DNA of 64,000 nt from Bilabrum cf. latius (taxonomy: Eukaryota), in NCBI GenBank assembly GCA_965178125.1, contig OZ237738.1:1240001-1304000 (forward strand), read 5' to 3'. The notes beneath the pieces were generated by a model, which saw nothing but the letters and a program-made list of their open reading frames with translations, was not told the DNA's origin and did not search any database. Every line of letters starts with the position of its first letter. Position 1 is the stretch's first letter. This document shows positions 838 through 24,704 of this stretch, in pieces. The translations under genes and the position numbers were made by a program.

Positions 838-889
838 GATAAGGTTTATTAATAAATATTTATTTGTATAGCTTTAATATATAAATAAA

Positions 890-1843
890 ATGAGTTATAG
901 CGATGAATTTGTAAGATTGAATTTAGTTAGTTCATCTGTCCCCCACAATTAGACGAGATAGGCGGTAGTGAATGAAACCCGTGAAGGCTTAATATTAAAA
1001 CAAAGTGAAAATTATTTAACGGCTGTTGAAGAGATGGATTTAAATAAATTTATGCTACCGGTGTTTAAACCTGAATATTAGGATGACAGCGGTAAAACCT
1101 ATTTAAAATTTACTCTTGAGAATAAAACATCAGGAGCCAGAGCAGGCGATTATATAGTTCTAGGTAAAAAAGCTAAATTTTATTATTCATATTAGGATAT
1201 TGTAAATGAATTTAATGAAGAGTTAAGCCGAATTTGTGATTTGGTAAGCCTTCCAAGTGGTGATAAACCAGTCTTTAAATTTGAAAATAATAAATGGAGT
1301 TTATCAACAACTGAAGATTTTAGAGATAATTATTATTTATTTGTTAATTTTGAAGCTTTTGCTTTATTTGATAAATTTGAATATGAAGGAATAACAACCA
1401 CACCGAGTGATTTATTTGCTAAACTTTCATATAATAATTCCCCTGCTAGTGGTGATTATGTTTTTATGGCTAGATAGACGAATTTAAATTCTTGGTGCCC
1501 TGTTAAATCTATTATCGTAGAAAGTGATATTCCAGTGAATAAAGAATTGGTGACCACAAAATCATCTACTGGTGGCTCTATAGCCGTCAATAAATCCCCT
1601 ATATTAACCAGCTACCCGTATAATCCTAATGACAGCTCACCAATAGAAAATATATTATATGTTTCTAATCCTTACCGCTGGTATTCAATGATGAAGGATA
1701 GAAGCTTTAAGAGCGTGTCAATGGCGTTCTACTGGGTTGATAAACAAAATGAAAAGTATCCCGTAATGAATTTTAACGGGGGTGAAGCTCACATTAAACA
1801 AGTATTTAAAAAACAAACCGATAATTTAAGTTTAGATTTTTAA
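890..1843 (+). CDS. Minor capsid (penton) protein, outer virophage (317 aa with TAG read-through)
   Basis: ATG 890 is in frame with track ORFs 1241 and 1535, separated only by TAG; ends TAA. Directly upstream of MCP. Resembles the inner penton (ETR..LL, IPVF, FYW.DK). Confidence 0.8.
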
Positions 1844-2360: not shown

Positions 2361-3403
2361 GGGGGGGACAACAGGTGGTGGTAGGTACACCAAGCGTTTA
2401 GGACGAGGGCTACGCTACGCTCGCCCCTCCTTTAAAGGCATATTTAGCAACTCAAGTGTTTCCCCTATAAACCTAAATGATTTCACAGGGGGTTCCCCAA
2501 GAACCCCTATAGAACCCCTCTATGTACCCATTTTCAGATATAAAATTTACTCCTACGAAGTAGGGGTAAATTGAAGAATTCTAATATTTAACCCCCTTAT
2601 AAACTCTAACAGCAAAGACAGAGATGTTTTAGTAAAGTAGGAAAAAATGAAGAAATTAACCAAGTGTCCAAAATATCTCTGTGTTTGCTGTAGGAACGGA
2701 AGGATGAATTCCCAAGAGACCAAGAGACCAACCGAGGATTTCCCCAAGAGAACAAGGTATTTTATCAAGAGACCGAGGTATGTTCCCAAGCGACAAACCG
2801 ATAAACCGACCGATGAACCGACCGATGAACCGACCAAGGATTTCCCAAGGATTTCCCAAGGATTTCCCAAGGATTTCCCAAGGATTTCCCAAGGATTTCC
2901 CAAGGATTTCCCAAGGATTTCCCAAGGATTTCCCAAGCGACTAAATTGTTCTCCGAAGCAACCAAACCGATTACCCAAGAGATGATACATTATAAGGAAA
3001 ACGAAAACGTATTTTAAGTCCCTTTGGAAAAGTCCCCCAAAAATTGAGAGATTTTACAGGTCAATTTTAAGAGACTTAGAAAGAATAAATATATTTTCCA
3101 ATTAAAATTAAATGTTGTAATTCCTATGATGCCACCATAAAAATTAAAAGGAAAACGAAAACGTATTTTAAGTCCCTTTGGAAAAGTCCCCCAAAAATTG
3201 AGAGATTTTACAGGTCAATTATAAGAGACTTAGAAAAAATAAATTAAGTTCCCAAGATGCTCGGGCTTTGCCCTCCGCTCTTTTGATATCTTTTTCAAAG
3301 ATTAAAATTAAATGTTGTAATTCCTATGATGCCACCATAAAAATTAAAAGGAAAATAAAAAACAAATTATAATTGTTTTCCAATTAAAAACGCAAAAATT
3401 GAT
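2361..3403 (+). repeat. Left terminal inverted repeat of inner virophage
   Basis: Reverse complement of ~18676-19606. Contains 9 copies of 11-bp CCAAGGATTTC and ~155-bp internal sub-repeats. Confidence 0.92.
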
Positions 3404-3627
3404 GGAAAATAATATAGGATACAAAGAAATATTAAAAGGGTATAGGGATGATAATTTAAGCCATTCTATATCACTATAGTTAATGAACCCATTTTTAAAG
3501 GAGTTGATGATAGAGCATATTGTCAAGCAAATTAATCCACGTATTTGGAAAAAATTACACGAAAAACTAAAGGAATACAAGAAGCTCGGGCTTTGATATA
3601 AGTAGAAGACTATACTATAAAGTACTT

Positions 3628-3912
3628 ATGAAGCCACATACCTACGATTTTGAAAAGGTTGTCGAGAATTTTCTATTTAAAGCACCCTCAAGACGCAAGA
3701 ATAAGAAGTATGATGTTTTTGACGAAAATGATGAATACATTACATCGTTTGGTGATAGGCGGTATTAGCAATTTTACGATAGAATAGGGTATTACAGCCA
3801 TTTAAATCATTTAGATACGGACCGCCAATTTAGATACTTCAAACGACACGGTATCGAAGTAAAACCAAGAACCCCAAAGTTCTTCTCACATTTTTACCTT
3901 TGGAGTTCATAA
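3628..3912 (+). CDS. Tlr6F/DUF5754-like small protein (94 aa)
   Basis: SRRKNKKYDV...SFGDRRY*QFYD...NHLD...RY..RH...FSHFYLW; one in-frame TAG; ends TAA. Confidence 0.7.
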
Positions 3913-4443
3913 ATGACACGTCAATAAATACACTAATTCATCAGGATTTAATGTATGTTTCTTACAAACCTTATCCACCCACTTTTTATACTAATCAGCG
4001 TTTTTCGCTCTATTCCAAAGACGAACTATACAATGTCTCCCGCAGGTTGCTATATCCATTCCATCCGCCTAAAACTAATATGGGTTATAGTCAATCTTAT
4101 ACGGAGAATGATACATTAAATATATTAACTCAGGGTCTTCATAAAAACGTTTCCGCACGCTTTCACTCATTGTGTGCTATTGCCTATCAGGACGAATTCC
4201 ATAACTGTCAAAGAAGTATATTGTTTTATTACGCTTAAATAAGCACACCCAGTGTCCAGAATTTATTTCTTCTTGGTATAGAATGATACAACAATTACAA
4301 CGACTAAATAATCCATCAATACTATTGTACTATCCTAATTCTGTATATGGAACGATGTTTACCGACGTAGGAAGAAACCCCTTAATATTTGGTGGAGTTT
4401 GGAGGAGAACACGAATATCACTATCGCTAAGAGCATAATCCAT
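3907..4443 (-). CDS. Virophage maturation cysteine protease (adenain-like, 178 aa)
   Basis: GHWVCL, YFFDSYG and YNPY*F*ADGMDIATCGRHC motifs; 5 in-frame TAG; ends TGA. Absent from the ORF track. Confidence 0.92.
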
Positions 4444-4632
4444 ATATATTTATTATAGAAACATATATTGGGGGAGATGAATTCTCTTAACCACTATTTA
4501 AGCGTAGAAGTATTTCTACAAAATCCGTTTTGGAATTTGTGGATAGCATAAAAGACAATCATTCAAAATAAGTTTTCAACAAAAAGACAAAACACTTTAG
4601 AAAAAATAAAAACATATAGTAAATACACTAAA

Positions 4633-5535
4633 ATGGCTCATTTTTCTTGGAAGGAAACTACAAAATCAACACCCATCGCATATGACACTCACGGAAAACG
4701 TATTTTATACACGGCGGAAAACACAGACAACCAATTTGGAGATGATAGTATGTCATTTTAGGATTTTCAAGTATCATCACTTACAGGGAAACGATTTCCG
4801 CAGAGGAAAATGGATTTATTAGCACGACACTTAATCAAACAGGTCGAACCCCTAGACGAAGACATCAAATACTTGTATGAAAAAGCATAGGAAAAGAAAC
4901 ATAAAGAGATTACATTAAAATAGGGTGAATTCCAATCATTACCAAATTTAAACGGAAGAGAGGTAATATATATCACCGCACCATCAGGTGCTGGGAAGTC
5001 TACTTGGGTTTCCAAGTATGCTAAGAATTATCATAGAATGTTTCCAAACAGGAGAATTATTTTATTTTCACGAGTATAGTAGGATAAAGTCTTAGATGAA
5101 GTGAAAGGACTGAAAAGGATTATTTTAAATGAGGAACTGGTGGAGAACCCGATTGATATTCATTAGGAATTAAGGGACGCCTTAGTAATCTTGGATGATA
5201 TTGATACAATCAAAGATAAGAAGTTAAGGGAAGCCCTCAATCATTTACAGGATGAAATATTATAGGTTGGTCGCCACTCAAATACTTCAGTATTAATCAC
5301 AAGTCATTTATCCACCAACTATAAAAGTACCCGTATTATTCTTGCGGAAAGTCATAAGTTCGTTATATTCCCTTAGTGTTCTTCCGCACATTCTCTAAGG
5401 TATTTACTAAAAAATTATATTGGACTTGAGAAACAAGAAATCTCTAAAGTCCTAAAAATGCCTTCTCGGTGGGTTTGTGTTCATAGGAATTACCCGAGGT
5501 ATTTAATTGGAGAAAGGTAGGCTTACCTTCTATAA
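4633..5535 (+). CDS. FtsK-HerA/A32-like genome packaging ATPase (300 aa)
   Basis: Walker A APSGAGKST, Walker B LVILDD, GRH motif then ITSH; only TAG interruptions; ends TAA. Absent from the ORF track. Confidence 0.93.
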
Positions 5536-5564
5536 TTTTGGTCAAACTTGTTATAAAAGTTTCT

Positions 5565-5804
5565 TTAAATAATATTCTATTCTCTTATATACCGACTTGC
5601 TTGAGGTAAACTCATACCAGTCTACTACATCACCATTTTTACAAGTTTATTGCGGCGTTTCATTTTGGCGCTCACTTTCCGCTTAGGCTTACTACGGCCT
5701 TTTCCAACTTTAATATGATGGTTTTTAACTCTATTTAAAGCGTCTTGTTCTTTCTATAGCGCGAGTTGTTTGGTTCTCTATATAATCCACTTATCAATAT
5801 CCAT
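5565..5804 (-). CDS. Small basic protein (79 aa), candidate DNA-binding core protein
   Basis: MDIDKW...VGKGRSKPKRK...RRNKLVKMVM..TGMSLPQASRYIRE; TAG read-through; ends TAA. Confidence 0.55.
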
Positions 5805-5869
5805 TATACTATACACAAACACTTTATTTTTTATTTTTTGGTCAAGCTTTTTATAAAAGCTTATAGTAA

Positions 5870-7051
5870 ATGAAAACTGCTAAAGTGAATGCTCTTATTC
5901 AGCAAGCCCTAGAAAGGGAACTGGACAATGCTAAAATGTTAGATTTACAGGCAAGGGACGACGTAGATTTAGAAACAGAATATAGTGATTTTATAAGGAA
6001 AAGGGCAAAAATTGAACGATTAAAAGAAAGTGGAAGGTATGGAACTCCAGCGTAGAGAAAATAGGCAGACCAAAGCAACGAGGAAATCATATCTAAGTCA
6101 ATATCTGGTATAATGAAAGGTATTATTGAGGGTAAAAATGTAAGTCCAGCAGTGAAAGCATTGAAGGATTTTGTTGGTAATATCAATATGTCTCCACAAA
6201 TGAAGCAACAACTCGCCCGTCAATACGTTAACATAGAGAGGTTTCAAAGGAAAGGATACGAAGGACTGCAGAGAGTTCCAGCTGAGGATAGAAAACAACT
6301 CTTAGAATTAGGGAAAGTTATATAGGAGGCATCCGGACAACGAATACCGTAGGGAATGTTGGGAATTGATTAGTAGCCAACATCTTTACAAACACCTGCT
6401 CGAACAACAAGAAGAAACACGTTTTCCGCTCCAACACAAGTACAGCTTCCAAAAAGGTCTTCGGGTGCGTATAAATAGTTATTGGAAAGAGCCAGAGAAA
6501 GAATACAACAAGACAGACCCTTAACTGAAAAACAACGAATAGCGTGGGATTTAGAATAGGGAAAGAATTTCTCACAAAGAACATCACAGGGGCAGACAAA
6601 TATGTTTTAGCATTTTCAAGAGGGTTCAAGTAGTAATGCGTCAAAAACATCAAAAGACTTAGATGCCATATTAGCCGCAGCGAGCAATGAAAGACCACTA
6701 CCGCAAGGAAGCACTCCGGGGGCGTGGGACCCAGAAACTGGTGAGTACTATGATATGCCGAGTAGGATGGAAATTGAGCAGGGAATTGGAAAACGTGCTA
6801 CTAGACCTGTGTAGCGATTTACGGGGTTTAGTCCGCCCTATGGAATGTAGTAGCCTGATTTAGAAGACCCACCATCACGCGCAATGACTGTAGAAGAAAG
6901 TGGAAAACCAAAAAAGGGGAAAGGATTAACAGGTGGAAAAAGAATTATCTATGATACAGCAATGAATGTAGCCAAGAAAGTAAAAGGAAGCACTAAAAAT
7001 ATTCATCATTAGGTTGCTATGGAACTATTACATCTTTTAGGAAAAGATTGA
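5870..7051 (+). CDS. Hypothetical protein (~393 aa) with C-terminal GKGLTGG motif
   Basis: Track ORFs 5870 and 6113 are in the same frame, joined via TAG; ends TGA. Confidence 0.6.
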
Positions 7052-7116
7052 CCAAAACCTCTTATATACATCTTTTGGCAACCTGATAAAAATTATATCT
7101 GTGGATATACTATAAA

Positions 7117-7608
7117 ATGTCAGTCTCAAATCTTCTATCTAAGAACAGTCTAGACCTTATGTCTCAAACTATTACGTGTAATGTTGTGAGTAGCGACGCA
7201 ATTAAAGTGTCCGCAATTACTAACTCTACGGGAGCAGTCATAGGCAATCCAAGTATTGAATTCAAAGACGGAGAGCCTTATATGGAGTGGGGTGAAACTG
7301 TTCTACGGTTTGGAAAAAACGGAGCGTCTGCTGGTTGTCAGTTCAGTATGAGCGAAGAAGGAGAAAGATGCGATATTTCACTAGTTGGTTCATTCAAGAC
7401 TTCTCAAGAGGGTGTTGTTGGGCTGAGTGAGGTTGCTGGAGCTACATTGGCTGACGCTTCTACCCCTATTAATACGTCAGCAGAGCGAAAGTTCAAGGGC
7501 GCTTTAGTGTATAATGGAAGCGACAACGATGTCTATGTGGCGATTGGCAGTTCTTCTACATCTAGTTGGAAATCCTTAGTGTCAGGTTCACTTATTACAC
7601 CATCTTAA
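7117..7608 (+). CDS. Hypothetical beta-rich protein, putative fibre/spike; homologous to 32940-33461
   Basis: GETVLRFGKNGASAG...EEGERCDISLVG matches GEALRFGANTASAG...EDGHECDLTVKG; lies just upstream of the penton. Confidence 0.6.
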   Translation: MSVSNLLSKNSLDLMSQTITCNVVSSDAIKVSAITNSTGAVIGNPSIEFKDGEPYMEWGETVLRFGKNGASAGCQFSMSEEGERCDISLVGSFKTSQEGVVGLSEVAGATLADASTPINTSAERKFKGALVYNGSDNDVYVAIGSSSTSSWKSLVSGSLITPS

Positions 7609-7664
7609 TTATACTTTAGAAAAGTAATCAAACCCACCCCATAATTATAAACGTCTATAGTAAA

Positions 7665-8774
7665 ATGAGTTCTCCAGACCGATTTTACATTACCGCAAAC
7701 ATACGAAATAACGAAGATACTTTCCAACCAGCGACCTATAGCGAAACCCGCAAGTAGCCATTATTAGATAAGGATGTTGGTGATTATACGATGTCAGTAT
7801 TCCGGTTTTCCATAAGCACCAATTCAATACCTTTATGGGTTCCACACATAGAAACCGATAAAGTGAAAAATCCATCTTCAAATCCTAATCAAACGGTGTA
7901 TAGAATAAGCATTACAGATGAAGACGGAGTAAGTTTATGGACCTCAAGCATTCAGTGGAGACCCTAGTTAACAGGGGAAAACCAACCATCTTTTTCCAAT
8001 CCTATGTAGTTTGTTCCTTATTATTATATGTATTCCGTGTAGCATTTTGTTGATTTATTCAACGAAACCATATAGAATGCTTTATCAGCGGATATTACAT
8101 CAGTTCCGGTTTTACTCTTTAAAGATGGAAAGTTCAGTTTAGTAGCAAACCCCGATTACGACGAGGAAAACTCAGGACAGAAATTTAAATTAGTGTTGAA
8201 TGAAGCCCTTAACGAACTGATGACGGGTTTTCCTATGGAACGAATGGATATCCAAGATGACGACTTATACGCCAGTATTCTATTCAAAACCCTAGGAACC
8301 AATGTTTTATTCGATGATGGCTCTTCTGTTGGAAAATATGAACCTTAGGCATACTTCGAGGGAAACCCAACGGGAGACTACAGATTAATGATGACCTAGG
8401 AACGAGGGAGTTTAGTGTAGTTTTAGATTTTTCGCGGAATAGTTTTCACATCTTCAAGTCTTCCAGTGAGGAGTGAGGCAATATCCTAGAAATCCGCCTA
8501 TGGACAATCCACTAATACAGTTCAAAATTCAGGTTCAGGGACCGAGAGTTTATTAGTGGATATGGATTGTGTATTAGATGATACTGAAACAGTTAATTAG
8601 CAGGTTCTTCAATACCAGCCCCATATTCTCCACGAAATTGATTTTTTAGATACACATTCAGTAGATAGGATTTAGTTTAATCTATATTGGAAAGACAATT
8701 ATTCAAATCTAAGACCTCTTTATTTACGCCACGGAAGTGTGAGTGTGAAGTTTTTATTTAAGAAACGGAAGTGA
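7665..8774 (+). CDS. Minor capsid (penton) protein, inner virophage (369 aa)
   Basis: ATG 7665 to TGA 8774 with TAG read-through. YSETRK*PLL, SIPVF, IVFTSSSLPV, LYWKD, VKFLFKK motifs; precedes MCP. Confidence 0.88.
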
Positions 8775-8879
8775 AATTAGTTTTGTATTACTTTTATGAA
8801 GAAACGAGTTTGCGTTCTTTTCTAAAGAACTGAGTGATAGAATTTTATTCGTTGTATATAATATACAAGGAAAACAAAA

Positions 8880-10646
8880 ATGTCATTGAATACATTTGCC
8901 CTTCAGCCAGTCAAAGTATCTCCCGCAACATTAGACGTACAACCAAAGCCTTATGAAGTTCAAGAAGGTTATGAGAACCGAACGTTTCGCAGATACGCTC
9001 CATCTGGTTCAGCCGGTAATTATAATTCAGGTGTGAATTGGAATATTAGTATGCCTTCAGGTGTAGGTTTATGCCGCCGCGCATACGTGTCTTGCCGTTT
9101 TTCCATTACCTTTTCCGTGAATAATCAAACCGCAGGTGCTCTCGTACCATTTACACCAGATTACGATGCTCCACGCTCATATCCACTTAATCGCTCCATT
9201 GCAACACAGACAGTTGGTATCAATAACATTCGCTTTACTTAGAATAACGCGGAAATAATGGACGTAGTGTCCCATTGTTTAGATGATGATGTTCATCGTG
9301 TGAATTGCCTTGATAGTGTGTATAGACGCGACAATGTGCCTTCATACGCGATGATGAGTTAGGCTACAAATAACGCTCTTGCTTCGTATGAGGACGTGCT
9401 TTAGGACCAACCCGCAAGAGGAAGTGGATTTTATAACTTGGTTCAAATGGATAACACTCCAGTGCCCGCAGGTCAAACGCAAAATCGTGTTCTTGTCTTT
9501 GAATGTACTGAGGCGGTTCTTTGCCCACCTTTCCATTACGAAAGTAAATAGGAACAACCAGCCATTTTCGGTTTAGAAACTCTTTCCTTGGATATCAATT
9601 GGTCGCAACTGAGTAGAACCGTGTGGTCTCGTATTCCACAATAGGACTTAACTGCTACCGTTTAGTCGGTAGATGTCCAGAACCCCTATTTATACCTTGA
9701 ATAGATTACCCCTAAAACAGGGTTTGTCCTTCCAAAACAGGTATCCTATGATATTTTTGAAATGACTTCATATACTCAAAGCTATGGTGCAACAATCAGC
9801 GCAGGAACAACAGCAACTCTTACGAACAACAATATTAAACTTAGCAATTCAGTTCCATCTCGTCTATTTGTGTTTGCCCGTCGCTCACCTACCAGCGTCT
9901 CAGTAGATTAGGGAAACACATTCCTTGGAATTGAGGGAATATCTATTGAGATGAATAACCAAAGTGGATTACTCGCAGATGCTTCACCTCAGTAGCTATG
10001 GGACTTATCCAGAAGCAATGGACTTGAATAGCAATACGCGGAATGGGCTATGCGTAAATTCGGGGATAGGGTGCTATCAGGCGCAATTCTCTCCATCGAC
10101 CCCGCCAAGGATTTGAGCCTAGATGTAGATTAGACAAATGGAAGCAACGGCTCTAACCAATTGTCTATCACCCTACGAGTGAAGAATAATGATGTTGTAG
10201 ATTACCAAAATGTGTAGTGTGTGGTTGTGGGATTGTACGAAGGAGTAATGAATGTGATTGATGGTTCTAAGATTGAGTATTAGCAGGGTGTCATCTCACG
10301 GGCAGATGTTCTTTCCGCCTCTAAACTACCCGTAGTATATGAAAGTCAATTATCAGGACTACACGGTCGCGGTCTTGGGAAAAAGATTAGACACGCCTTA
10401 AAAAAGTTCGCACACAAAACCGCTGATTGGGTAAAGAAAGGCAATCTCAAAAAAGTATTAAAGGATGGTAAGTAGGTATTTGACACCGCTAAAATGGTGG
10501 GTGAAATGGCTGGTATGGGACGCCAAAGGAAACCCCGAAAAACTACCAAGAAAGGCAAGGGCTTAACAGGTGCCAAGTTGGGTTCTGGATTAACAGGTGG
10601 TAAATCTCTCTCTCGCAATCAATTACTCGCTATGCTCCAAGCTTGA
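8880..10646 (+). CDS. Major capsid protein, inner virophage (588 aa)
   Basis: Virophage-MCP-like motifs PS...RRAY, YPL...INN, VPSRLFVFAR, QLWDLSRSNG; Gly-rich basic tail with LTGG; TAG read-through; ends TGA. Confidence 0.9.
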
Positions 10647-10701
10647 GTATGAAAAGGGTAAACCAATAAATATTTGTCTTGGTATATAGTATATCAAAAC
10701 A

Positions 10702-11319
10702 ATGTCAGTATCATCTGCTGTAATGGTTGCTGGGACTTTGGCTCCTTTAATGTATTCTGGTAGTCGGTGTCTATATTCTTGGTGGACGAAAGACGGAACT
10801 TAGAAACAGAAATCCTGCGTGGTTGTTCCAAAAGGCTCTGGGAAAACTACTTTGTGTCGCTCTATAGAAAGTGTTGATAAAGACACTTTGGTCATTGACT
10901 TAGATGAATGCGTAAATGGTTAGATTTCAGGGTAGGAAAAATAGAAAATGGAGAAAATGCTAATTGATGGTGATGAAAGCACCCACCGTCTCTTTTATTA
11001 CTCTTAGTCAAGATTAGTGTATGAAAAAATTAAAGCGGATTGGCTCACAAAGAAATCCAGGCGTTTAATTGTTATGGTTGGTTCGTTGGAATTAGCGAAA
11101 GATTTATTTAAGGAAAGTTCAATTTTTGTGTGTGTGCCTTCTCACAGTCTTTTTGAGGAAATCCGTGAAGGGAAAAAATCGGGGGACTTATTGTCTGTAG
11201 AACGCTCAAGAACGAATTTAATCGCTGGATTACATTAGAGTTAGTACTGTGTCTATTCATCCTTTTAGCAACTGGAGGAATTCGTCCGGAAAACCTTCGG
11301 TCTTGGAAGTCGTCTATGA
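10702..11319 (+). CDS. P-loop NTPase/kinase-like protein (205 aa)
   Basis: PKGSGKTT Walker A and LVIDLDE; hydrophobic N-terminus; TAG read-through; ends TGA. Confidence 0.65.
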
Positions 11320-11344
11320 GTTTTTTAATACAAGCCTATACTAA

Positions 11345-12601
11345 ATGGATAGTTTTTATACACTTAGTGGCGGAAAAATGAATTCTGGTTTTGTTAAGAC
11401 GTACATTAGTGTCAAAGAACCAAAGAGTAAAACAACAAGGACATGGAAAAGTGAACATCCTTATTCTAAAGAAGCCCTTGAAAAAGCAATTAAGTTTGAA
11501 GATGGTGTGCGAAGCACCCCCTCTCGGCGCAGTTAGCTGGCGCAACAGCTTAAAGATGGTGTGGGAGCAAAAGGAAAACCAAAAAAGAAATCCTAGAAGA
11601 AATCCACACAATCCAACACACTTCATTAGTATTTAAAAAATGGTTTGCGAAGCACCCCCTCTCGGCGCAGTTAGCTGGCGCAACAGCTTAAGGGTGGAGT
11701 AGTGTATGGGAATTCAAACGAAGTCCAGAGAACACTACAGCAATACGGGGATAGAACAATTATAGCTATGAAAGTAATTAGAACCCCCATTAGTGGCGCG
11801 ATTAATCGGTTGCTTAACTGGATTACCCTTGGAAAAATGAAAAAGTTAAAAAATAAACACGGATATAATGATTTTTTTCACTTAGCCTTAGAGTTGAACC
11901 TTGGAGGTGGAAAAAAGATTTATCTTGAGAAGAATGAGAGGGTTAATTTGTCCTCAAGATTTTCCACCAACAAGAAAACACAAACTATGGAAGTAAATAT
12001 TAATGGAAAACCTTAGAAAACAGTAAGGGAATTATATGAAACCACTTTACAGAAAATAGGAGAATACAATTTTTATTAGTATCGTGCTTTCTCGTTGAAT
12101 TGTCAAAAGTTCATTTAGGATGTTCTACGCACAAATGGGTTTTTGACACCACCCTTAAACCAATTTATTATGTAGGATGTAGAGAGTATTGCTAAGAACG
12201 TATCGGGATTTACTAAGAGAGTGGCTAATGCTGCTACTGATGTGGCTGGGTATTTTTCCAAATGGTTCGGGAGAGGTTTAGATGATTTACCGGAAGATGT
12301 AAGAAACGCTTTAAGAAAAAATTAGGAAAAGCATAAGTAGAACACAGAAAGGGATTTTGGACAAGATTTTAAGGAAGGTTGGGATTTAGCAACTAAAACA
12401 GTTGGAAGACCAATTATGAAAGAAATCCATTCGCATACGAATGACCCAGTATCGGGTATGTATCTGGAAATATTTGGAGGTCAATGTCAGTGTGAAACAA
12501 AACGTTCAAGAGTTATGAAAATGGCGTCCATTTTAAGAGGAAAAGGAATATCCAAGAAGACAGCACTTAAGTAGGCTTGGAAAATGTTTGCGTATGATTA
12601 A
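11345..12601 (+). CDS. Hypothetical protein (418 aa) with permuted papain-like (PPPDE/LRAT-type) His...NC motifs
   Basis: FFHLAL and YRAFSLNCQKFI; joins track ORFs 11345 and 11702 via TAG; internal 46-bp duplication; ends TAA. Confidence 0.6.
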
Positions 12602-12621
12602 TTTATGATTGTGTATAGTAA

Positions 12622-13263
12622 ATGGCGGGTGTTGATGATTATACCGAAGAACAACTACATTTACTGGCTAGTTAGCCACATCAGAGTTTGGGGAAAGACG
12701 CTAGACAAGCACTAGCAATTTTGAAAGGATTGAGGAAGCACTAGAGTATAGGGGAAAAGTACGCTAATCGTGTATATGTAAACCCTTAGGAAAGGGAAAT
12801 GATGGAAATGCTCGCCGAAAAGACCGAACAAGAATTTGATACGCTAGGAATTGACAAAGATAGTGATGGTGATTATGACGTGGGTATACTAAAATTCTTA
12901 TCACCATCACTACACGAGCAACACGACACAACACTTGATGATTTTAATTAGGCAATTCATAGAAAATATGCGTCAGAACGGAGAGATACTATGCGTGAAT
13001 TTTTTGATGCTAGAGAGAAGGGAAACAGTTAGAAAGAACTATTATCATCGAGATAGGCTAGAGTAATGCGAATGGGTGGTGAAGTGCCTGATTGGGGCTC
13101 GAGCGAAAGAGCGAAGTAGAGTTTTAAACCACAAAAAACTGGAAAAGGGAGGCGCCGTCGGAAAAACCCAAAAGCAAAACTAGCAATGAAAATCGCTCAG
13201 TAGTTAAGAGGTAGAGGATATGGGAAAAGTGATGCTCTAAAAATTGCTTGGTAGAATGTATGA
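12622..13263 (+). CDS. Hypothetical protein (213 aa) with basic ALKxAW C-terminus
   Basis: ATG to TGA with TAG read-through; C-terminus LRGRGYGKSDALKIAW. Confidence 0.6.
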
Positions 13264-13304
13264 CTTAAATCTAACTCTATAGTATAATACTATAGAATAC
13301 AAAA

Positions 13305-13577
13305 ATGACACTCAGTCATTCAGAAAGAAAAGAACAGGATAAGCTGTATGCCCGTGAATACTACCGGAAAAACAAGGAAAAACTTGGAGAATAGATAAAG
13401 TGTTCCTGTGGTGGTGTATATAAGAAGTACAATAAATCACATCATTGTAGAACCAAAAAACACCTTGATTGGCTTAAAAAAGAGGAAGACACAAAAAGGG
13501 AACAAATTAATATTATGGATGAACTTGATAGTTTGCGATAGGAAATTTAGAGACTAAAGGAAAAGCAGACTATTTAA
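13305..13577 (+). CDS. Small C2H2-type zinc-finger protein (90 aa)
   Basis: EYYRKNKEK...KCSCGG...KSHHCRTKKH; homologue at 33502-33804. Confidence 0.7.
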
Positions 13578-13633
13578 TTCAATCTTTTCTAAACACTTTT
13601 ATGCCGTTCCACCGGTAAACTGCGGTGCTTTGG

Positions 13634-15475
13634 TCAATCTTTTCTAAAAATTTTCTTCTTACTGTGAATAATTTGACATTCACCTGATTGCTCCAACTTC
13701 ATACCCCCAAGGTTCGTTGATAACTTTAGAGGTAATTCTTTCTCACTAATGAAACCATCCGTGTTGACATAGTGAATGTTTTCAAGATATGGCTCAATCA
13801 TTTTGGACAATTTACTTCGTCCAAGTCCAGTCAGAAAGGGGCCCATTCTTGCGTAGGCTGTTTTGTAATCGTACTCTTCGTCATATAGTATACCCGATAC
13901 AAGTCGTCCAGATGCTTTAGGATACGCGTTCTTTAATTGTCTAAAATTCATACAATCACCATCTCGGAGTGTTTTTGTGATTGTGTTTTTCTAACATAGA
14001 GAACCCCAAATATTATTTAGTATCTCCTTCGCACACTTCAATCCCTATTTTTTATAACCGTACAATCGCTCAATCATCGTTTTGAACAGTCCATTTGCCT
14101 TCACCCTTGTTGTCTCATCGTAAAGTAAAGCGTTGGCTTCACCGTCTTCAATCAGAGACACCTAAGCGCCCGTCTCAATCGCTCGGTTAATGTCATATTG
14201 GGTATAATAATTGTTTTTTCTTTTTTGTACTAATTTAGAATTGAGATTTTCAATATGTACCCTAAAAATGCCGTACGGATAGAACCCACTGGATGGTACT
14301 TTAAATTGTACGAACTTACCCCTTCTAACCGGAAATGTAAATGTACCCTTCATAATACTTGGATAAAATGAGTTAATATCGTACTGGTATGCGTTTTTTA
14401 ATGTAGTATTCTTGTTTGCCCAATTCAATCCACCACCCGAGGCTTTAGAAATCCATAGTGCTTCAACTTGGTCAATCGGGTCGGCAGGGTAAAGTTTGGA
14501 AAACTTACTGAAATACGACTTTACAAATAGGGATGTTCTAAACATAAATCGTGATAAATCCATATATCCACCCGTCTCCTTCGCTAATGCCCTTACATTT
14601 TTCATCCGTTCTTCGTGTTTTGTTCTTAGTTCTTCCTTGGACTTGACTTCAAAGATGAATTTATCCTTGGAAACTGATGTAATGCCTTCTGATTGATACT
14701 CACGGTCTCCATCAAATAGTAAATAAGAATTCTCGGATTGATACAAGCGGGTAATTAGCGTACACGGTTCTTTAGACGGCGGTGTAAATAATTCTTTCTA
14801 ACTAATGGGGGGAACATACTTGTAATGCCCATTTGTTAATGAAACAGTTAGAAGACGGTCAAAATGAGTTTTTCCAGATGTGTATTCAAAGTCGCCTACA
14901 ACATGAATGCGTACTTGAAGTTCGTCTTCTATCTCTGGTATTCTTCTGTAATCAACGGGGTCATCACGTCCAATTTTCAAGAGTTCTTTGAGGTCGGACT
15001 TCGACAATCTTTTAATAGTAGTTTTCCATTTGCCTTTTGCGCTCTTTACATTTACCTTACGACCAACTGAAAAAGGAAAAGCCTGTTTTATAGCGTTATA
15101 TAAACAATCGTTATGTTCGTCAGCACCGCCTTCTGGTTCTGGCTTTCTAATAAGCAGTAGTTCAAAAGAATTCAATTTTCTATATTCGTCGTCATCGTCG
15201 TCTTCGTAGCCCGCCCATAAACTATCTTGATTTTCTAAATCATCTGTAGTAATCCAAGTGCTTCGTGTTCGCCAACCTGTATCTTGGTAATTGATATTCA
15301 CCTTAAATTTAAAGTCATCAAACGGATTTTCACCACCATCGTCGTAATCACGAATAAATTCCAAGACATTTTTTACGGTGATAAGGTCCTCGCTCTCAAA
15401 TCGCATACTCCATATTGGTTTCCCATTAAGACGCAATTTGGTTCTTTGGGGTTCCGTAAAATCGATTTCGGGCAT
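13634..15475 (-). CDS. Protein-primed family B DNA polymerase, inner virophage (613 aa)
   Basis: Three track ORFs in one frame split only by TAG; YDINSFYPS, KEILNNIWG and VNTDG motifs. Confidence 0.92.
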
Positions 15476-15494
15476 TCTATAGTATCTATTATAT

Positions 15495-15526
15495 TATAGA
15501 ATACGATAATTATTCTTAAGGTACGA
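15495..15526 (-). promoter_or_regulatory. Conserved 32-bp upstream motif (copy before pPolB)
   Basis: TCGTACCTTAAG-N9-CGTAKTCTATA on the sense strand; same spacing at 17209-17240 and 18627-18658. Confidence 0.7.
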
Positions 15527-15532
15527 ACTCAC

Positions 15533-17194
15533 TCACTTCTCAATTTTACAGAGGAATTTGGAAAGTTTTCCTTTTTTGTTCTTTGGTGGGTTCTCTTTTA
15601 TCCATTTTTGAATAGCGATGCTATTCTCAACACTCAGCTGTTTCTGGATTTTCTTATGGACTTGTTCCGTCGGTGTAATCTCCTTTTCTAATTCCAACTA
15701 TTCAATCGTTTCCTACTGCTATGCGACTTGTTTCTGTAGTTCTCTAATCTACTCTCGAAGAACATCTACCTCGGATTTTGCTTTTTCCATCTCAGCAGAA
15801 TGACGAAGTGCCTAAAATTTAGATTGGAAGCCTTTTAGTAAGTCTGCGTGTTTCACATTAAATTCTTGTTTTCTCTATTTGTTCATCGTTGAATGAACAC
15901 CTACCTCTGACAATAGTGTTTTAATCATAGGTGTACCAAGGTTCTTCACTCTACCGTTCAGTTCCTGCTTTAGATAATTGCGGAATTCCAAGACTGTCAT
16001 TTTAAAATCTCTGCCTTCGTCCAGCCACTCTTCTTTTAGAATTTTTAAAACCGGATGTGCGCCATCAAGAATTCCTTTGTAAAAATTCTTTGATTTTGGT
16101 GCGAATTGTCCTGTAAAGTCTGGTGATGTATCATAGATTTCAACCAATAACATATAAAATGCCTTAGCCACTTCTGGATTTTCTGTAAAACGTTTTAGTG
16201 TTGTAAAGTATTCTTTGTCTCCTTTCTTAGATGTATTCACATCCAAAACACAATATCTACGGATTTCCTCGGTGATTTTGATTGGACTATCATTCGTATC
16301 AATAATTAAATTGAATGTATTCGGACGACTTTCGGATTTGACAAACTTCTCATTACAGGAAAAGTGTTTTTCCGTAATAAGATTTCTTAGTGTTGCCTAC
16401 ATGGCGTCCCAAATAGTTGGCGAGGCTTTTGGAATTTCATTAAAATTGACTAATAGTTTCCCGTCCAGAATTGAGTTGAAGGCGTCGGGTTGAAGCATCT
16501 TGTGTGTAAGCGTCTATAGTGTGAGGGTATATCCGAGTAGTTTTCTCATAAGGAAGGTAATAATCATCGATTTACCAGTTCCTTGTGGAGATTTCAAATA
16601 TAGTGCTGTACCCAACTTCTTTCCGCCCACAATAACGTGAGCCAACCACTTCATCACAAAATCACACTATTCTTTGTCTTCTGAAGTCCACACCTTCTGG
16701 ATATGTTCGTAAATCATAGTCGCGCCTGCTTTTGCGTCTTCGGTTAAATCCTCTATGTTTCCACAGTTTTCCCGTGTAAGTATAGGTGAACCCATAACGT
16801 TAATTGTTTGATTGTCGTAATCAACGGTAGGTGAATTGAATTTTCTTACAATCGTAAATACGTCGGTATTCTCATTTAAGAACCAGTCTCGTGCTGACCA
16901 AGTCTTTACTCTTTTGTTGCCCACAATCGCGTAAATACAGTGTCCCCCAATCAGGTAATTTTCAGTAATATTTTTATTCGTAAGGAACTACCAGACTGGT
17001 TTCTGGGGTTCGTCATCACTTATGTTATTCCGATTTAATTCAGATGCTATTAGAAAATACACCCCGCCACCTTGTTCGTGGGTGCGGTAGAAGTATTGTT
17101 TAAGGTATTGAATACATTCCTCTTGTTTTCCGGCATTACATAGGTCCATAAGGCTTTTTGACGAATACGCTTTAGTCGGCAGAGTGAATGACAT
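15533..17194 (-). CDS. Superfamily 3 (D5-like) helicase (553 aa)
   Basis: LYLKSPQGTGKS Walker A, LVNFNE Walker B, RRYCVLD; C-terminal coiled coil; TAG read-through; ends TGA. Confidence 0.85.
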
Positions 17195-17208
17195 TTTTGT
17201 TGTTGTAC

Positions 17209-17240
17209 TATAGAATACGAAAATAATCCTTAAGGTACGA
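17209..17240 (-). promoter_or_regulatory. Conserved 32-bp upstream motif (copy before helicase)
   Basis: Same motif, 14 bp upstream of ATG 17194. Confidence 0.7.
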
Positions 17241-17251
17241 TACGGGGCATC

Positions 17252-18307
17252 TCAATTTTCTATATCCCACTCCAAAATTAAATTAGGAGCAATTTCTTGG
17301 ATTTTATTCTTTGGTTCCCACGTCCAATGTTCTGGTTCTGGAAAATCTTTCCATTCTATTTGATATTCTGTTTCGTTCTCGGATTTTATTTTTTTTGGGA
17401 GAAAGATTGTCTGAGCATCTCGGTTATTGTCCTCATTATCAAAGTCGATAATCTGTAATTCCTCTTTTGGATAAGCCACTAAATCATCCTAATCCACAAC
17501 ATATAAGGGTGGTTGTCTCGGTCTTAATAATACTTTAGTTATCGTTTTGATTTCTGGATTATAGCGTAAATCTGAAGCACGAAAATTTCCGGATAATTTT
17601 TGCTGTAAATTTGTAGCCTTTCTGGGTTCTTCTAATGGTATACGAACTCTTGTACCCTCTTCCAATATATTACAAGCGTCTCCTTTACACTACGTAAAGT
17701 CGAAGTGTTCTGGGGGTAAAGGTGGTTCTTCTATATACTTTTCTAGTTGATATTCATTATAGTTTTCAATGATGTTTGGAAGCATATCCACCCATTCTAC
17801 GCTTTCATTACCTGTATTTAACTCATTAACGTTCTATAGGGTAAATATGGCTTTTCCCAACGTTTTATTTAGGTTTTCCACTAATGCCTGTTGTCGGTGG
17901 CGACCTGCTTTATTTCTTCGTACAAATACATCGGTCTCTTCTAAATATCTTTGTAAAGCGTTAAATTCTTTTCCATTATCTATTTCCAAACGGTGCTGCG
18001 GTTTCTGGACATTACCACGATTGAAAATCTTTTTTGATGCCTTTAATACTTCGTTCTAACGCTTGGTTTTGAGCGGTTCAGCATCGGCCTACTTTGTATG
18101 TAAATCAATAGCAGTTAATGCGTATTTATAATTATTGTCGTGGGGTAATGATAATAAATCCATTTGTACCACTTGGTGAGGTTCTGGTACATTTACGTGG
18201 GGTCGATTTACTCCTTTGGGTCGTTTTGGTCGTTTCATTAAATTTACAATACGACTGTTGGGATAAATGTTTAGGGATTGTAATATTCTTTCAAAGGCGC
18301 TACTCAT
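17252..18307 (-). CDS. Retroviral-type (rve) integrase with C-terminal chromodomain (351 aa)
   Basis: QMDLL, AIDLHTK, IDNGKEF, QALVENLNKTL (DDE triad); EYQIEWKDFPEPEHWTWEP chromodomain; consistent with the 5-bp TSD. Confidence 0.93.
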
Positions 18308-18372
18308 TTGCTATATAGTTGTATCATTCTCCTTACTTTTGTAAAGTAGGGAAAATAATTCTTGGGAAAAAA

Positions 18373-18612
18373 TCATTTGGTTTTGGTACTTTCGTGCCAT
18401 TCAACTACAATTTGACTTAAATCTTTAGCTTCCTCAAAGTCAGCAAGCAGGTCATCGTCATCATCATAATTAATCCAAATAATAGTCTTTGTAAATTCAA
18501 GGTACTTTTTGGCCATATCGTATGCTTCTCGTGTTGTAATAAACGGGACTGATTTAAGACATTCTTTGGTCGCCAAGATGTAATTCTCGAGTTCCTTTTG
18601 TGATTTTGCCAT
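18373..18612 (-). CDS. Hypothetical protein (79 aa)
   Basis: Clean ATG-TGA ORF preceded by the conserved 32-bp upstream motif. Confidence 0.6.
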   Translation of the reverse strand: MAKSQKELENYILATKECLKSVPFITTREAYDMAKKYLEFTKTIIWINYDDDDDLLADFEEAKDLSQIVVEWHESTKTK

Positions 18613-18626
18613 TTATGTGGTTGTAC

Positions 18627-18658
18627 TATAGACTACGTAAGTTATGCTTAAGGTACGA
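18627..18658 (-). promoter_or_regulatory. Conserved 32-bp upstream motif (copy before ORF 18612)
   Basis: Same motif, 14 bp upstream of ATG 18612. Confidence 0.7.
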
Positions 18659-18675
18659 CATTTCCACTTTAGGCA

Positions 18676-19606
18676 ATCAATTTTTGTGTTTTTAATTGGA
18701 AAACAATTATAATTTGTTTTTTATTTTCCTTTTAATTTTTATGGTGGCATCATAGGAATTACAACATTTAATTTTAATAGGGAACTTAATTTATTTTTTC
18801 TAAGTCTCTTATAATTGACCTGTAAAATTGACAAGTTTTTTGGGGACTTTTCGAAAGGGACTTAAAATACGTTTTCGTTTTCCTTTTAATTTTTATGGTG
18901 GCATCATAGGAATTACAACATTTAATTTTAATTGGAAAATATATTTATTCTTTCTAAGTCTCTTAAAATTGACCTGTAAAATCTCTCAATTTTTGGGGGA
19001 CTTTTCCAAAGGGACTTAAAATACGTTTTCGTTTTCCTTATAATGTATCATCTCTTGGGTAATCGGTTTGGTTGCTTCGGAGAACAATTTAGTCGCTTGG
19101 GAAATCCTTGGGAAATCCTTGGGAAATCCTTGGTCGGTTCATCGGTCGGTTCATCGGTCGGTTTATCGGTTTGTCGCTTGGGAACATACCTCGGTCTCTT
19201 GATAAAATACCTTGTTCTCTTGGGGAAATCCTCGGTTGGTCTCTTGGTCTCTTGGGAATTCATCCTTCCGTTCCTACAGCAAACACAGAGATATTTTGGA
19301 CACTTGGTTAATTTCTTCATTTTTTCCTACTTTACTAAAACATCTCTGTCTTTGCTGTTAGAGTTTATAAGGGGGTTAAATATTAGAATTCTTCAATTTA
19401 CCCCTACTTCGTAGGAGTAAATTTTATATCTGAAAATGGGTACATAGAGGGGTTCTATAGGGGTTCTTGGGGAACCCCCTGTGAAATCATTTAGGTTTAT
19501 AGGGGAAACACTTGAGTTGCTAAATATGCCTTTAAAGGAGGGGCGAGCGTAGCGTAGCCCTCGTCCTAAACGCTTGGTGTACCTACCACCACCTGTTGTC
19601 CCCCCC
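18676..19606 (-). repeat. Right terminal inverted repeat of inner virophage
   Basis: Mirror of the left TIR with only 3 copies of the 11-mer and lacking a ~45-bp inner segment. Confidence 0.92.
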
Positions 19607-20352
19607 GAAACCTTATCCACAATCTCACCCGTTGGACGCCCTGACACTGTTGGTGATTATCGTGAAGTAAGTGATACCCTTAAAAATCCTTTAGCTTGGG
19701 GTTAGGATGTTGGATATAGTGCCGGTGATAGCTTTAGTTATCGTGGAGCATATGGGAATGCTTTTACGACTGTAAGTGCTGATTTCGTTGCGGGTAATAG
19801 AGACCAAATTGATTGGACTATTGATTTTCAAGAAGCTATACCACTAAAAGGAGCAGATGTTGATGTGAATGCTAAATATTTCACCGGTGTGAGAAGCCTT
19901 CAGGTTGATTTAGATTATCACGTAAATGCCATTCAAAGACTGTGTAAGGCTAGTTTTACAAAAGATAACGGAGATATTAACAAAATAACGGGTTAGTCAA
20001 TTATAGGAGAAACAAATACGACCCTTCTTGTTGATGAAGTTGAATTTTAGAGTGGATACGCCCCCCCGACTCGTTGTATGTATAATATGCCTACAATTAA
20101 ATTTTAGTCTTAGGCGCCTGTCCCTGTACCTAAATCCGCAACTGAAAATTCTTTAACTTCTTTTGATTATCAATTATCCCGTGAGAATGGTATCCCTAGT
20201 GCTATTATGGTATGTGCCCGCCTTGTTGGTTGTGATGATAACCCTAACTGGGCTAATAGAACTTTACCAATTAGAAGAATAGGTTTCTCACTCAATGGAA
20301 GCGCTGAGGAATTAGGGGCTGTAGATAATCCACACGAATTTTATAAAAAAAA

Positions 20353-21025
20353 CAGGACGTCCCTGCGCCCGTCCCGCGCCCTCTCCCCCCCACGAGGGAC
20401 AGTCCGCCCCGAATCGACTGGTTCTCCTCAGTCGCGTCTCGCGCATGCTATACCACACTCGCCACAAATGTACACGCTACCCCAATCCTTGCATCGTCTG
20501 CGCCTCCAGGCTCGCTCCGATGCCTCCCCTTCTAGTCCTGCCCCATTCTGATCTGCTGTCTCCCTACGCACCCGTACGTCTCAGCCTTCGCCAGAAATCC
20601 TACTGCCTTGTGGTCTGGCCCCACTCGGCTGCCTCCGCTGCCCCTCCCTCCCCATGGGCCTCCACGCTCCCGAGCCCTACTGGCTTGCTCGGGCCTGTCC
20701 GTGCCCCTTCGTCGTCCCCGCCACGCGTCTGGTTAACCGCGCTCGGGGCATCCCGATCCTCCCCTTTCCTCCGTTCATCTTGGAATCCCCCTCTCCGTCG
20801 CCTCCCCCGGTGCCACCCGACCCCTTGGTGGGCCGCCGCCCGTCCACCCTGTCACCTCCGCCAAGCTCCCCCGTCTGCTCCTGTCCCCCTCTCACCTGGC
20901 CCCCTCGCTGTCACCTCCCGCCGTTGTTGTCCTCCACCTGCACGTGCGCTGCTGCTGTACCCTCCCCGTCGGAGCCCCCATCGCTGTCTCACAGCCCTCA
21001 ATCCCAATGTCTGATGACACAGATA
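20353..21025. mobile_element. Unclassified ~670-bp GC-rich, C-skewed insertion in outer MCP
   Basis: Sharp composition change, inserted in an A-run; MCP frame resumes after it. No TIR, LTR or credible ORF recognised. Confidence 0.7.
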
Positions 21026-21778
21026 AAGTAGAAAGAACGGATATGCTCTTCCTCCTTCATCCTTTTATGGTTCATCAATTGATGGAAGTGATGGAAACCG
21101 CGGTACTGGTTGCTATATGATTTTAAAACCTTCAGATGTTGCTACACTTGCTGGTGTTCAATCTAATGTAAATACTGGATTTAATCTTAAAGTTAATCTT
21201 TAGTGCTTCAACCCTTATAATAAATATGCGGATGGTGCGTATGAGGATAAATACGAGGTAAAAGTATGGATGTTTTATGATAATGTTCTTGTGAATGATA
21301 ACGGTGTCTATACTGAGGCTGGCGCCCTTATTGAGCCTTCTAAAGTGCTTTCTGAACTTGCTAAACGTGGTGATGCTGAAAGTGGTTCTAAAGGTTTCTA
21401 GCCTGTATTTGAGGATTTAGATAATTATGCTAATGTTATGGGTGGAAAAGGTCGTTTCTGGTCTAAGATTGGACGAGCCTTTAAACACGGATGGAACAAG
21501 GTTAAAGATTGGGCAAAAAGTGATTAGGCTAAAAACCTAGCGAAAACCATTAGGAATATAGGACCACTCAAAAGTCTAACAGGAGACAATAGTGCTCTTG
21601 GCAAAGCGGCGGCACATTATGGATATGGAAATAGTGGAGGAGAATTGAATAAACTTGGTGGAAAACTTACGATGCGTGGAGGTGCGGCAATGAAAACAGA
21701 CGATCTTGAGGCCCTTTTAAGCACATCTTAAACGTTTAAAATGACTTAAATATATATTAACTAACTAATATATATCAA

Positions 21779-22069
21779 ATGGAAAAGTTAAATAAAATTA
21801 TTGAGAATCTACCGCCTACACACGATGTCTATATCCAGACAGAAATTGATGGAGTTTTGACCGTAATTTTTACAAACAGTGATTAGGTAAAAGAAATCAC
21901 CAATCAATTAAAAAAAGACAGTAGAGAGAAGCTATTATATCTCAAATATTCAACCTATAAATGTATTATTTAGACGAGGAATAAGTATAGAGATGATGAC
22001 ATTGTACTTCATTATTTGGCTGTTTGTCTATTAGAAAAGAAACCCATTCAATTATATAAGGCAAGATAA
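21779..22069 (+). CDS. Hypothetical protein (96 aa)
   Basis: ATG-TAA with TAG read-through; preceded by the GTTTAAAATGACTTAAA motif. Confidence 0.55.
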
Positions 22070-22120
22070 TCATTTTATTATTTATTTATACATATTAAAT
22101 AAATATATGACCTGTGAATG

Positions 22121-22233
22121 ATACTTTCCAAAGTAGGTTCATACTTTCCGAAGTTGGTTCACACTTTTCAAAGTAGGTTCATACTTTCCGAAGTTGGTTC
22201 ATACTTTTCAAAGTAGGTTCATACTTTCCAAAG
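22121..22233 (+). repeat. 20-bp tandem array, ~5.6 units
   Basis: Alternating ATACTTTYCAAAGTAGGTTC and ATACTTTCCGAAGTTGGTTC units. Confidence 0.9.
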
Positions 22234-22385
22234 AACTATTTAACCGGTCTAATTAATTAATATTTTAATAATATTAATTAATATAATCATCTATATCAAT
22301 AGTGTCTATTTTTTAAGCCCCTTTTTTATAATATAACGCGTTTAAAATGACTTAAAGATTATATTATATAGATATTATATAGAGA

Positions 22386-24669: not shown

Positions 24670-24704
24670 ATTGGTTTAAAGATTATATTTTATTATATTA
24701 TATA

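Follow-up and report, generated by a model that had tools for sequence, protein, structure and literature searches.

An integrated virophage with TAG as a probable glutamine codon in the genome of Bilabrum cf. latius

How should a virophage, one of the small viruses known as parasites of giant viruses, be read when nearly all of its genes are crossed by in-frame TAG codons: as a decaying relic, as a virus with a code of its own, or as a resident of a cell in which UAG is no longer a stop? The question is raised by a stretch of 64,000 nt from the Bilabrum cf. latius assembly GCA_965178125.1 (contig OZ237738.1, positions 1,240,001–1,304,000), referred to here as the window, whose internal coordinates are used throughout. 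Positions 2361–19606 of the window are occupied by an integrated virophage of 17,246 bp. We consider it likely that this is an intact, recently integrated virophage that uses TAG for glutamine in agreement with the nuclear code of its host, and that joins a Sputnik-type capsid to replication and integration functions of the mavirus/Polinton type. In the mechanism that we propose, the integrase would have inserted the element into the capsid gene of a resident virophage-like element with duplication of 5 bp, the host cell would decode UAG as Gln in the virophage genes so that only TAA and TGA terminate, and the transcription apparatus of a giant virus would switch the genes on through a TATA[GC]TA box.

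Translation with TAG as Gln yields 14 open reading frames (ORFs) of 90–613 aa, which tile the whole element. Their 4,559 codons include 105 in-frame TAG and not a single TAA or TGA, compared with 153 TAG, 258 TAA, and 260 TGA when these ORFs are read in their two remaining frames (Fisher p 2e-58). The terminators are TAA in five cases and TGA in nine, never TAG, whereas inside the genes TAG is found in 13 of the 14 and constitutes 40% of the virophage Gln codons. No frameshift was detected in the 14 ORFs, so that the re-annotation agrees with a preliminary description of this DNA, in which the core genes were said to contain TAG codons and no frameshifts. In-frame TAG combined with TAA and TGA ends, together with Gln opposite TAG in relatives (see below), is the pattern of NCBI translation table 15, with UAG as Gln and UAA and UGA as stops. 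When the standard code (table 11) is applied, no ORF of at least 100 aa covers the putative ATPase gene, and the only one over the putative protease gene lies on the wrong strand; the longest stop-free stretches are 51 and 50 codons, respectively. Standard-code calling does therefore miss both genes, as had been claimed.

The same way of coding was observed in relatives of the element. In a scan of metagenomes, seven loci were found to encode major capsid proteins (MCPs) of 55–62% identity, and the MCP genes of loci L001, L002, and L003 contain six in-frame TAG codons each. The most informative locus, L003 (13.8 kb), encodes orthologues of 10 of the 14 ORFs at 60% identity overall; its 11 ORFs comprise 4,125 codons with 51 in-frame TAG and no TAA or TGA, and end in TAA (six) or TGA (five). 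An environmental clade of TAG-recoded virophages exists (L001–L003). The window and L003 have TAG in common at 11 of 73 positions, compared with 7 of 104 at CAA/CAG sites; the enrichment is not significant (p 0.08), and therefore we do not claim that individual TAG codons are ancestral. No inverted repeats were found in the available parts of L002 and L003.

In one source, the database calls of the relatives' capsid protein are pieces of 109–150 aa from a protein of 587 aa. Standard calling shreds such genes, in line with the earlier expectation that virophages of this kind would be overlooked in surveys. No relative of the MCP was found in a collection of phage records or, by a scan with the single MCP, in a collection of viral contigs. 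Search of the latter with an alignment (A2) returned one distant virophage, L008 (25% identity), in which the 599-aa MCP ORF and 11 other ORFs of at least 150 aa are open in the standard code. The nearest standard-code relatives are similar to the capsid call P0004, with 47% identity.

Whose code is it? The virophage lies inside another, outer AT-rich element that is also virophage-like (890–2360, 19607–25850, and 31280–37900, with the left end outside the window), and whose ORFs comprise 3,809 codons with TAG in frame 59 times and TAA or TGA never (p 1e-39). The GC-rich ORFs of host type in the window, which encode a DDE_1 transposase, a reverse transcriptase (RT), and an RT/RNase H protein, likewise contain neither TAA nor TGA in frame, but 35 TAG, among their 2,571 codons (p 2e-16). 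For the host RT, the nearest database entries are fragments of 32–78 aa with 72–100% identity, which is what standard calling would be expected to produce by breaking these genes at TAG. No tRNA genes were identified in the window or in L001–L008, and thus the element would rely on the resident cell to read TAG. Most simply, UAG would be a sense codon in the host nucleus, and the viruses would follow; since the host transposons are written in the same way, the virophage appears to be adapted to a nuclear UAG=Gln code of its host.

Alternatively, the recoding could be private to the virus: the host would use the standard code, and TAG would be decoded solely in infected cells, through a suppressor tRNA of the helper giant virus, similarly to code 15 phages with a tRNA of their own. 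Giant viruses commonly encode tRNAs, and passages of a virophage survey report that some virophages carry tRNAs as well, one of them ochre-reading and regarded as a hint of host reassignment (PMC6905037). As the present virophage has no tRNA, a decoder must in any case come from elsewhere. Two further points weigh against a recoded host: its code is seen here through transposon ORFs alone, the window containing no housekeeping gene, and the profile of the host RT gives Arg a score of 2.2 and Gln 2.1 at its TAG sites (seven columns, two of them hydrophobic in the relatives). On the other hand, the transposon ORFs of host type, with their 35 in-frame TAG codons, must be translated without any virus, and the 40% share of TAG among the Gln codons extends to the integrase (6 TAG), which would be needed when the helper is absent. 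We therefore regard a virus-private code as quite unlikely.

The meaning of TAG was analyzed from DNA, as Gln at such sites in full-length database relatives may be an assumption of the gene caller. Opposite 62 TAG codons of the window, L003 has Q 18 times, E and K 8 times each, S 5, R and T 4 each, M and A 3 each, D, V, and Y twice each, and H, N, and G once each. This profile is similar to that opposite the CAA and CAG codons of the window (Q 31, E 16, S 10, TAG 7, etc.). In a BLOSUM62 likelihood comparison of 93 TAG-versus-sense pairs with L003, Gln was the best residue, followed by Lys and Glu at –20.4 and –29.2 log-likelihood (lnL) units. At codon 384 of the MCP gene, which is TAG in the window, all eight other sequences of a capsid alignment (A1) have Gln, including the standard-code call P0004 (438 aa), from a source whose other capsid calls break at TAG. 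In the integrase profile, constructed from 119 relatives, Gln was the top residue over five usable TAG columns (1.9, compared with –0.7 for Met), and the same procedure, applied as a control to 40 sense codons, recovered 33 of them. For the helicase, seven relatives were found, too few for a test of the code. One CAG/TAG difference was observed between copies of the element, at codon 313 of the penton gene. Glutamine is the best reading of TAG and is well supported by these comparisons, and leucine is excluded; the preliminary assignment of UAG to Gln thus agrees with the likelihoods, with MCP codon 384, and with the integrase profile.

A different residue (Lys, Glu, or Tyr) or an ambiguous reading of TAG seems very unlikely, although some observations count against glutamine. 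The sites where L003 itself has TAG pair with Lys eight times and with Gln seven times, and over these 31 pairs alone the two residues differ by 0.3 lnL. Codon 175 of the MCP gene (TAG, 9402–9404) falls in a column with Tyr in six and Phe in one of the eight other sequences of the capsid alignment. For some giant-virus metagenome-assembled genomes (MAGs), Tyr is described as the best annotation of TAG in the text of a recent catalogue (PMC13524828). Nevertheless, the likelihood over all pairs favours Gln over Lys by 20.4 and over Glu by 29.2, Tyr is the partner of only 2 of the 62 window TAG codons, the MCP column 384 is invariantly Gln, and the integrase profile has Gln on top; Leu is opposite none of the 62 window sites and 1 of the 31 TAG sites of L003. 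Codon 175 is the clearest single site that is not Gln-like: the eighth sequence has Gln there, possibly by assumption of the caller, and TAG is one base away from TAT and TAC.

The ends of the element are real. Terminal inverted repeats (TIRs) at 2361–3403 and, from the inverted-repeat comparison of the window, at 18676–19606 are flanked by two copies of the target-site duplication (TSD) GAAAC, at 2356–2360 and 19607–19611. The arms 2360–2871 and 19096–19607 are 100% complementary over 512 nt, and 98–99% onward to approximately 3403 and 18676. Over their length of about 1 kb, the arms are set apart solely by how many copies of the internal tandem repeats of 11 nt and about 154 nt they contain. 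The main difference is in the 11-nt unit CCAAGGATTTC, with about 10 copies in the left TIR (2834–2948) and about 3.5 in the right one (19096–19133). The left TIR contains the inverted pairs I1 (512 nt, 100%), I2 (354 nt, 98%), and I5 (103 nt, 99%) and the direct-repeat families D1, D5, and D8. In two contigs, one from each of the sequencing runs X1 and X2 of the same coded organism, the sequence 2029–2355 continues directly at 19607, skipping 17,251 bases, with five ambiguous letters that fit both sides. This empty-site joint with its single GAAAC confirms both the ends of the element and the target duplication. The preliminary description of a complete virophage with intact TIRs and TSD is accordingly upheld by the identical arms, by GAAAC at both ends, by the empty site, and by the open state of all ORFs.

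Contigs that contain the element were found in runs from two coded organisms and two studies (run X5 has no cover on 1400–2060 and X7 is near-empty, neither gap being counted). They differ from the copy in the window at about 148 positions (about 1%), and 20 of the 32 coding differences listed are synonymous if TAG encodes Gln. All listed contigs are without 55 nt of the window copy (13579–13633). Recent activity is suggested by the identical TIRs, the intact ORFs, the empty site, and the mostly synonymous differences between copies, and the element looks like a member of a young family under purifying selection. The near-identical copies and the empty site also fit the earlier proposal that the element is potentially active. 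Against a strong form of this proposal, particles, expression, and a helper are a matter of extrapolation from sequence, and the word depths of the contigs are un-normalised and thus do not give a copy number: they vary from the hundreds up to over 1,000 in runs X1, X2, and X5 (200–1,839 million letters), for the inner element as well as for the empty-site outer form. Such depths could reflect many genomic copies or free virophage DNA.

The notion of a decayed relic in which TAG codons are accumulated nonsense mutations, for which one may cite the frequent degradation of endogenous viral elements and the position of this copy in an insertion nest, is refuted by the stop-codon statistics (105 TAG with neither TAA nor TGA among 4,559 codons, p 2e-58), and we give it practically no credence in view also of the 14 ORFs free of frameshifts, the 512-nt identical TIRs, the persistence of the pattern in the 60%-identical L003, and the mostly synonymous differences between copies.

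What kind of virophage is it? The MCP (588 aa; 8880–10646, plus strand; 14 TAG) matches both capsid domains PF22031 (2.2e-27) and PF21915 (1.9e-22) above the cut-off. The penton, or minor capsid, protein (369 aa; 7665–8774, plus strand; 12 TAG) matches the V18/19 domain PF21507 (1.1e-10, 41.3 bits with a cut-off of 27). Comparison with proteins of known structure places the MCP much closer to V20 of Sputnik (3j26_A, 3.3e-30) than to the MCP of mavirus (6g45_A, 2.1e-08), and the only match of the penton is the Sputnik minor virion protein (3j26_N, 1.6e-12). The capsid is thus not of the mavirus-closest kind that marks the genus Mavirus and the EMALEs.

The replication and integration genes, all on the minus strand, point in another direction. 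They encode a protein-primed family B DNA polymerase (613 aa; 13634–15475; 4 TAG), a primase-helicase of the D5/VapE type (553 aa; 15533–17194; 10 TAG), and an integrase of the rve family carrying a chromodomain at its C-terminus (382 aa; 17252–18400; 6 TAG). The primase-helicase matches PF19263 (DUF5906; 3.3e-15), PF05272 (VapE; 1.4e-05), and phrog_1156, "DNA primase" (4.1e-19), and the integrase matches PF00665 (1.7e-09) and PF00385 (6.7e-06), with no sequence match in PDB. The polymerase is similar to phrog_1907, DNA polymerase (2.6e-13), its match to PF03175 (DNA_pol_B_2; 2e-05, 24.1 bits) is just under the cut-off of 25.8, and its orthologue in L003 is 61% identical. An rve integrase, a protein-primed polymerase, long TIRs, and a 5-bp TSD are all present, as in mavirus-like or Polinton-type integration. 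Judged by these similarities, the element is a mosaic of a Sputnik-like capsid module and a mavirus/Polinton-like module for replication and integration.

The Pfam matches agree with the preliminary assignment of the MCP, penton, helicase, and integrase. Two assignments have Pfam matches just under the cut-offs: that of the polymerase stands with the help of the PHROGs match; the other one concerns a P-loop ATPase, putatively for packaging (300 aa; 4633–5535, plus strand; 9 TAG). Its L003 orthologue is 61% identical; its family matches are generic P-loop ones (AAA_22, 9.3e-06, 26.4 bits with a cut-off of 27), and no PDB match was found. As for the putative cysteine protease (178 aa; 3907–4443, minus strand; 5 TAG), its earlier identification found no support in Pfam, PHROGs, or PDB, the sequence matches in the latter being summed WD40-repeat artefacts. 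The label reflects its position, its size, and the pattern GHW...FD.YG...Q...ATCG common with the L003 orthologue, conserved by eye, in which the His, Asp, Gln, and Cys-like positions may be those of a protease.

A small ORF of 79 codons without TAG (18373–18612, minus strand) overlaps the ATG start of the integrase gene by 28 nt in another frame, and is identical in a run X1 contig over 17126–18703. Integrase relatives number 246 at E <= 1e-5, and the best 120 of these 246 have lengths of 281–409 aa, hence the 382-aa integrase is full length and the overlap does not represent a frameshifted gene. The small ORF is preceded by a shared upstream box that the integrase gene itself is without; it could be a separate gene, or both could be translated from one transcript.

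The remaining ORFs, all on the plus strand, begin with one of 94 aa (3628–3912; 1 TAG), which matches DUF5754 (PF19058; 3e-06, 27.6 bits with a cut-off of 27.4). No function was assigned to the ORFs of 393 aa (5870–7051; 13 TAG; kept in L003), 163 aa (orf163; 7117–7608; no TAG; by eye similar to an ORF of the outer element at 32940–33461), 418 aa (11345–12601; 11 TAG; kept in L001–L003), and 213 aa (12622–13263; 9 TAG). An ORF of 205 aa with a P-loop (10702–11319; 8 TAG) is kept in L001–L003 and L005, and the Cys/His-rich orf90 (90 aa; 13305–13577; 3 TAG) in L002 and L003. The window gave no match to an Rfam family.

How could these genes be expressed? The box TATA[GC]TA is located in sense orientation 8–27 nt upstream of the ATG of 10 of the 14 ORFs and also precedes the small ORF; in L003, it is found upstream of 8 of the 11 ORFs. 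The number of boxes in the whole element argues against their significance, as the count of 25 barely exceeds the maximum of 24 in 200 shuffles (mean 12.7), and thus the case for the box lies in its position, not in its number. A longer box of about 50 nt (...CGTACCTTAAG...TCGTATTCTATAGTA..., family D6) is located ahead of the polymerase and helicase genes and of the small ORF (15475–15526, 17189–17240, and 18607–18658), and a related one occurs upstream of the helicase and polymerase genes of L003 (approximately 60–117 and 1765–1820). It looks like a second class of promoter, for replication genes. In mavirus, motifs of this kind correspond to the late promoter used by its giant virus, according to passages of PMC8547959. 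By analogy with mavirus, the conserved upstream box suggests that the genes of the present element are switched on by the transcription apparatus of a foreign giant virus. On the same analogy, we infer that the element would depend on a giant virus and that this virus would tolerate UAG as a sense codon.

The neighbourhood of the element is a nest of insertions. The virophage interrupts the capsid gene of the outer element (1915 onward), which is open across the empty-site junction. Other genes of the outer element encode a penton (890–1843; PF21507, 5.3e-07), a protein-primed polymerase split at about 25850, a PrimPol-helicase of 925 aa (33863–36640, minus strand), a DUF5872/DUF5754 protein, and small proteins that by eye resemble those of orf163 and orf90 in the inner element. 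A GC-rich insert without a second copy in the window (20346–21026; 681 bp, up to 72% GC) is also located in the outer capsid gene; it is missing from contigs of three runs, in which 20345 joins 21027 with five other letters instead, and from the empty-site contigs as well.

The outer polymerase gene is cut by a GC-rich retroelement of 5.4 kb (approximately 25850–31280) with RT/RNase H. Its ORF at 29783–30778 has a weak tyrosine-recombinase match under the cut-off (PF00589, 1.2e-04), and it carries a split direct repeat of 130 nt (30819–30948 and 31151–31280). The start of the window (1–890) has the same layout, with 146-nt copies at 330–475 and 692–837 and a 40-nt match to 30943–30982. No nucleotide similarity was detected between the two retroelements of the window. 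The GC-rich flank at 38–64 kb contains an ORF for a pogo-like DDE_1 transposase and an RT ORF.

What would such a system mean beyond this locus? That a helper giant virus exists and avoids TAG stops, and that the code acts as a barrier to host range, as the preliminary description proposed, is a reasonable inference. A broader proposal, which we hold tentatively and would not call probable, is that a virophage lineage with at least 40% divergence in its capsid, known from integrated and metagenomic members, evolved in a long-lived community of protist, giant virus, and virophage using UAG for Gln, the giant virus also being without UAG stops and the code fencing the community off from standard-code hosts. 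Integrated virophages are candidates for a heritable defence of protists against giant viruses. The element extends the integration of virophages, with nested parasites, to a host with UAG=Gln, from which a UAG-tolerant giant virus is predicted, and it makes the long-standing suggestion that a change of code is a barrier to viruses testable. If the broader proposal is true, the host genome and the public runs containing the element would for the first time give experimental access to giant viruses whose host has reassigned a stop codon. The locus also illustrates how surveys may be blind to such elements, as capsid calls are fragmented and a scan of viral contigs returned no close relative. 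Its value is chiefly that its ends and its empty site are defined and that both a host genome and an environmental clade are available.

Comparison with known systems begins with mavirus and the EMALEs of Cafeteria burkhardae, which passages of PMC8547959 describe as AT-rich integrated virophages in a GC-rich genome, often cut by Ngaro retrotransposons of about 6 kb, with a TSD of 5–6 bp in the case of mavirus. The present element is similarly an AT-rich virophage in the size range of about 17–20 kb in a GC-rich protist genome, with TIRs, a short TSD, an rve integrase, a protein-primed polymerase, a short conserved upstream motif, and multiple near-identical copies. The likeness to the EMALEs extends to the interruption of a resident virophage by a tyrosine-recombinase (Ngaro) retrotransposon, here possibly represented by the 5.4-kb RT/RNase H/tyrosine-recombinase element in the outer polymerase gene. 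It differs from those elements, as far as that account goes, in a capsid nearer to Sputnik, in the box TATA[GC]TA instead of plain TCTA, and in the location of this copy in the capsid gene of another virophage-like element; further, the Cafeteria elements were annotated by ordinary gene callers, whereas here all coding is in the TAG=Gln code.

Likeness to Sputnik (PDB 3j26) is confined to the capsid, with both MCP domains and the V18/19 penton domain above the Pfam cut-offs and the best PDB matches. Sputnik has an integrase of the tyrosine type, is not known to encode a protein-primed polymerase, and uses the standard code, unlike the TAG-recoded element described here. Code 15 phages (crAss-like; PMC9523058) also read TAG as Gln and defeat standard gene calling; in these phages, the code differs from that of the host and is imposed through phage-borne factors, whereas in Bilabrum the genome around the virophage shares the code and the virus has no tRNA.

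On the side of the helper, the text of the 2026 catalogue of giant-virus MAGs reports genomes that annotate better under alternative codes, for example, Imitervirales IM_12 under code 6 (PMC13524828). Such MAGs, which come without hosts, point to giant viruses whose hosts have reassigned stop codons, the kind of helper that this virophage would need. As stated there, all confirmed giant-virus isolates, and likewise the studied cases of integrated virophages, are from standard-code hosts (PMC13524828). Reassignment of UAG alone is known in some ciliates (PMC11687900).

The closest precedent for the code is found in Streblomastix strix, whose endogenous Polinton-like viruses are reported to use the TAA/TAG=Gln code of the host, regarded in passages of PMC10120064 as a sign of long association. 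We found no paper describing a TAG-recoded virophage, the supplementary tables of key papers being outside the search; given the Streblomastix viruses, the novelty was over-stated in the first reading of this locus, since endogenous viruses in a non-standard host code had already been published (PMC10120064). Both cases represent an integrated, capsid-encoding DNA virus written in the non-standard nuclear code of its host. The Streblomastix viruses belong to the Polinton-like MCP group, and their metamonad host has reassigned TAA as well as TAG, whereas the capsid here is of the virophage type and TAG only is recoded, TAA ending 5 of the 14 ORFs. Beyond what the published text on Streblomastix describes (PMC10120064), the Bilabrum element offers a full genome with its ends, an empty site, and environmental relatives.

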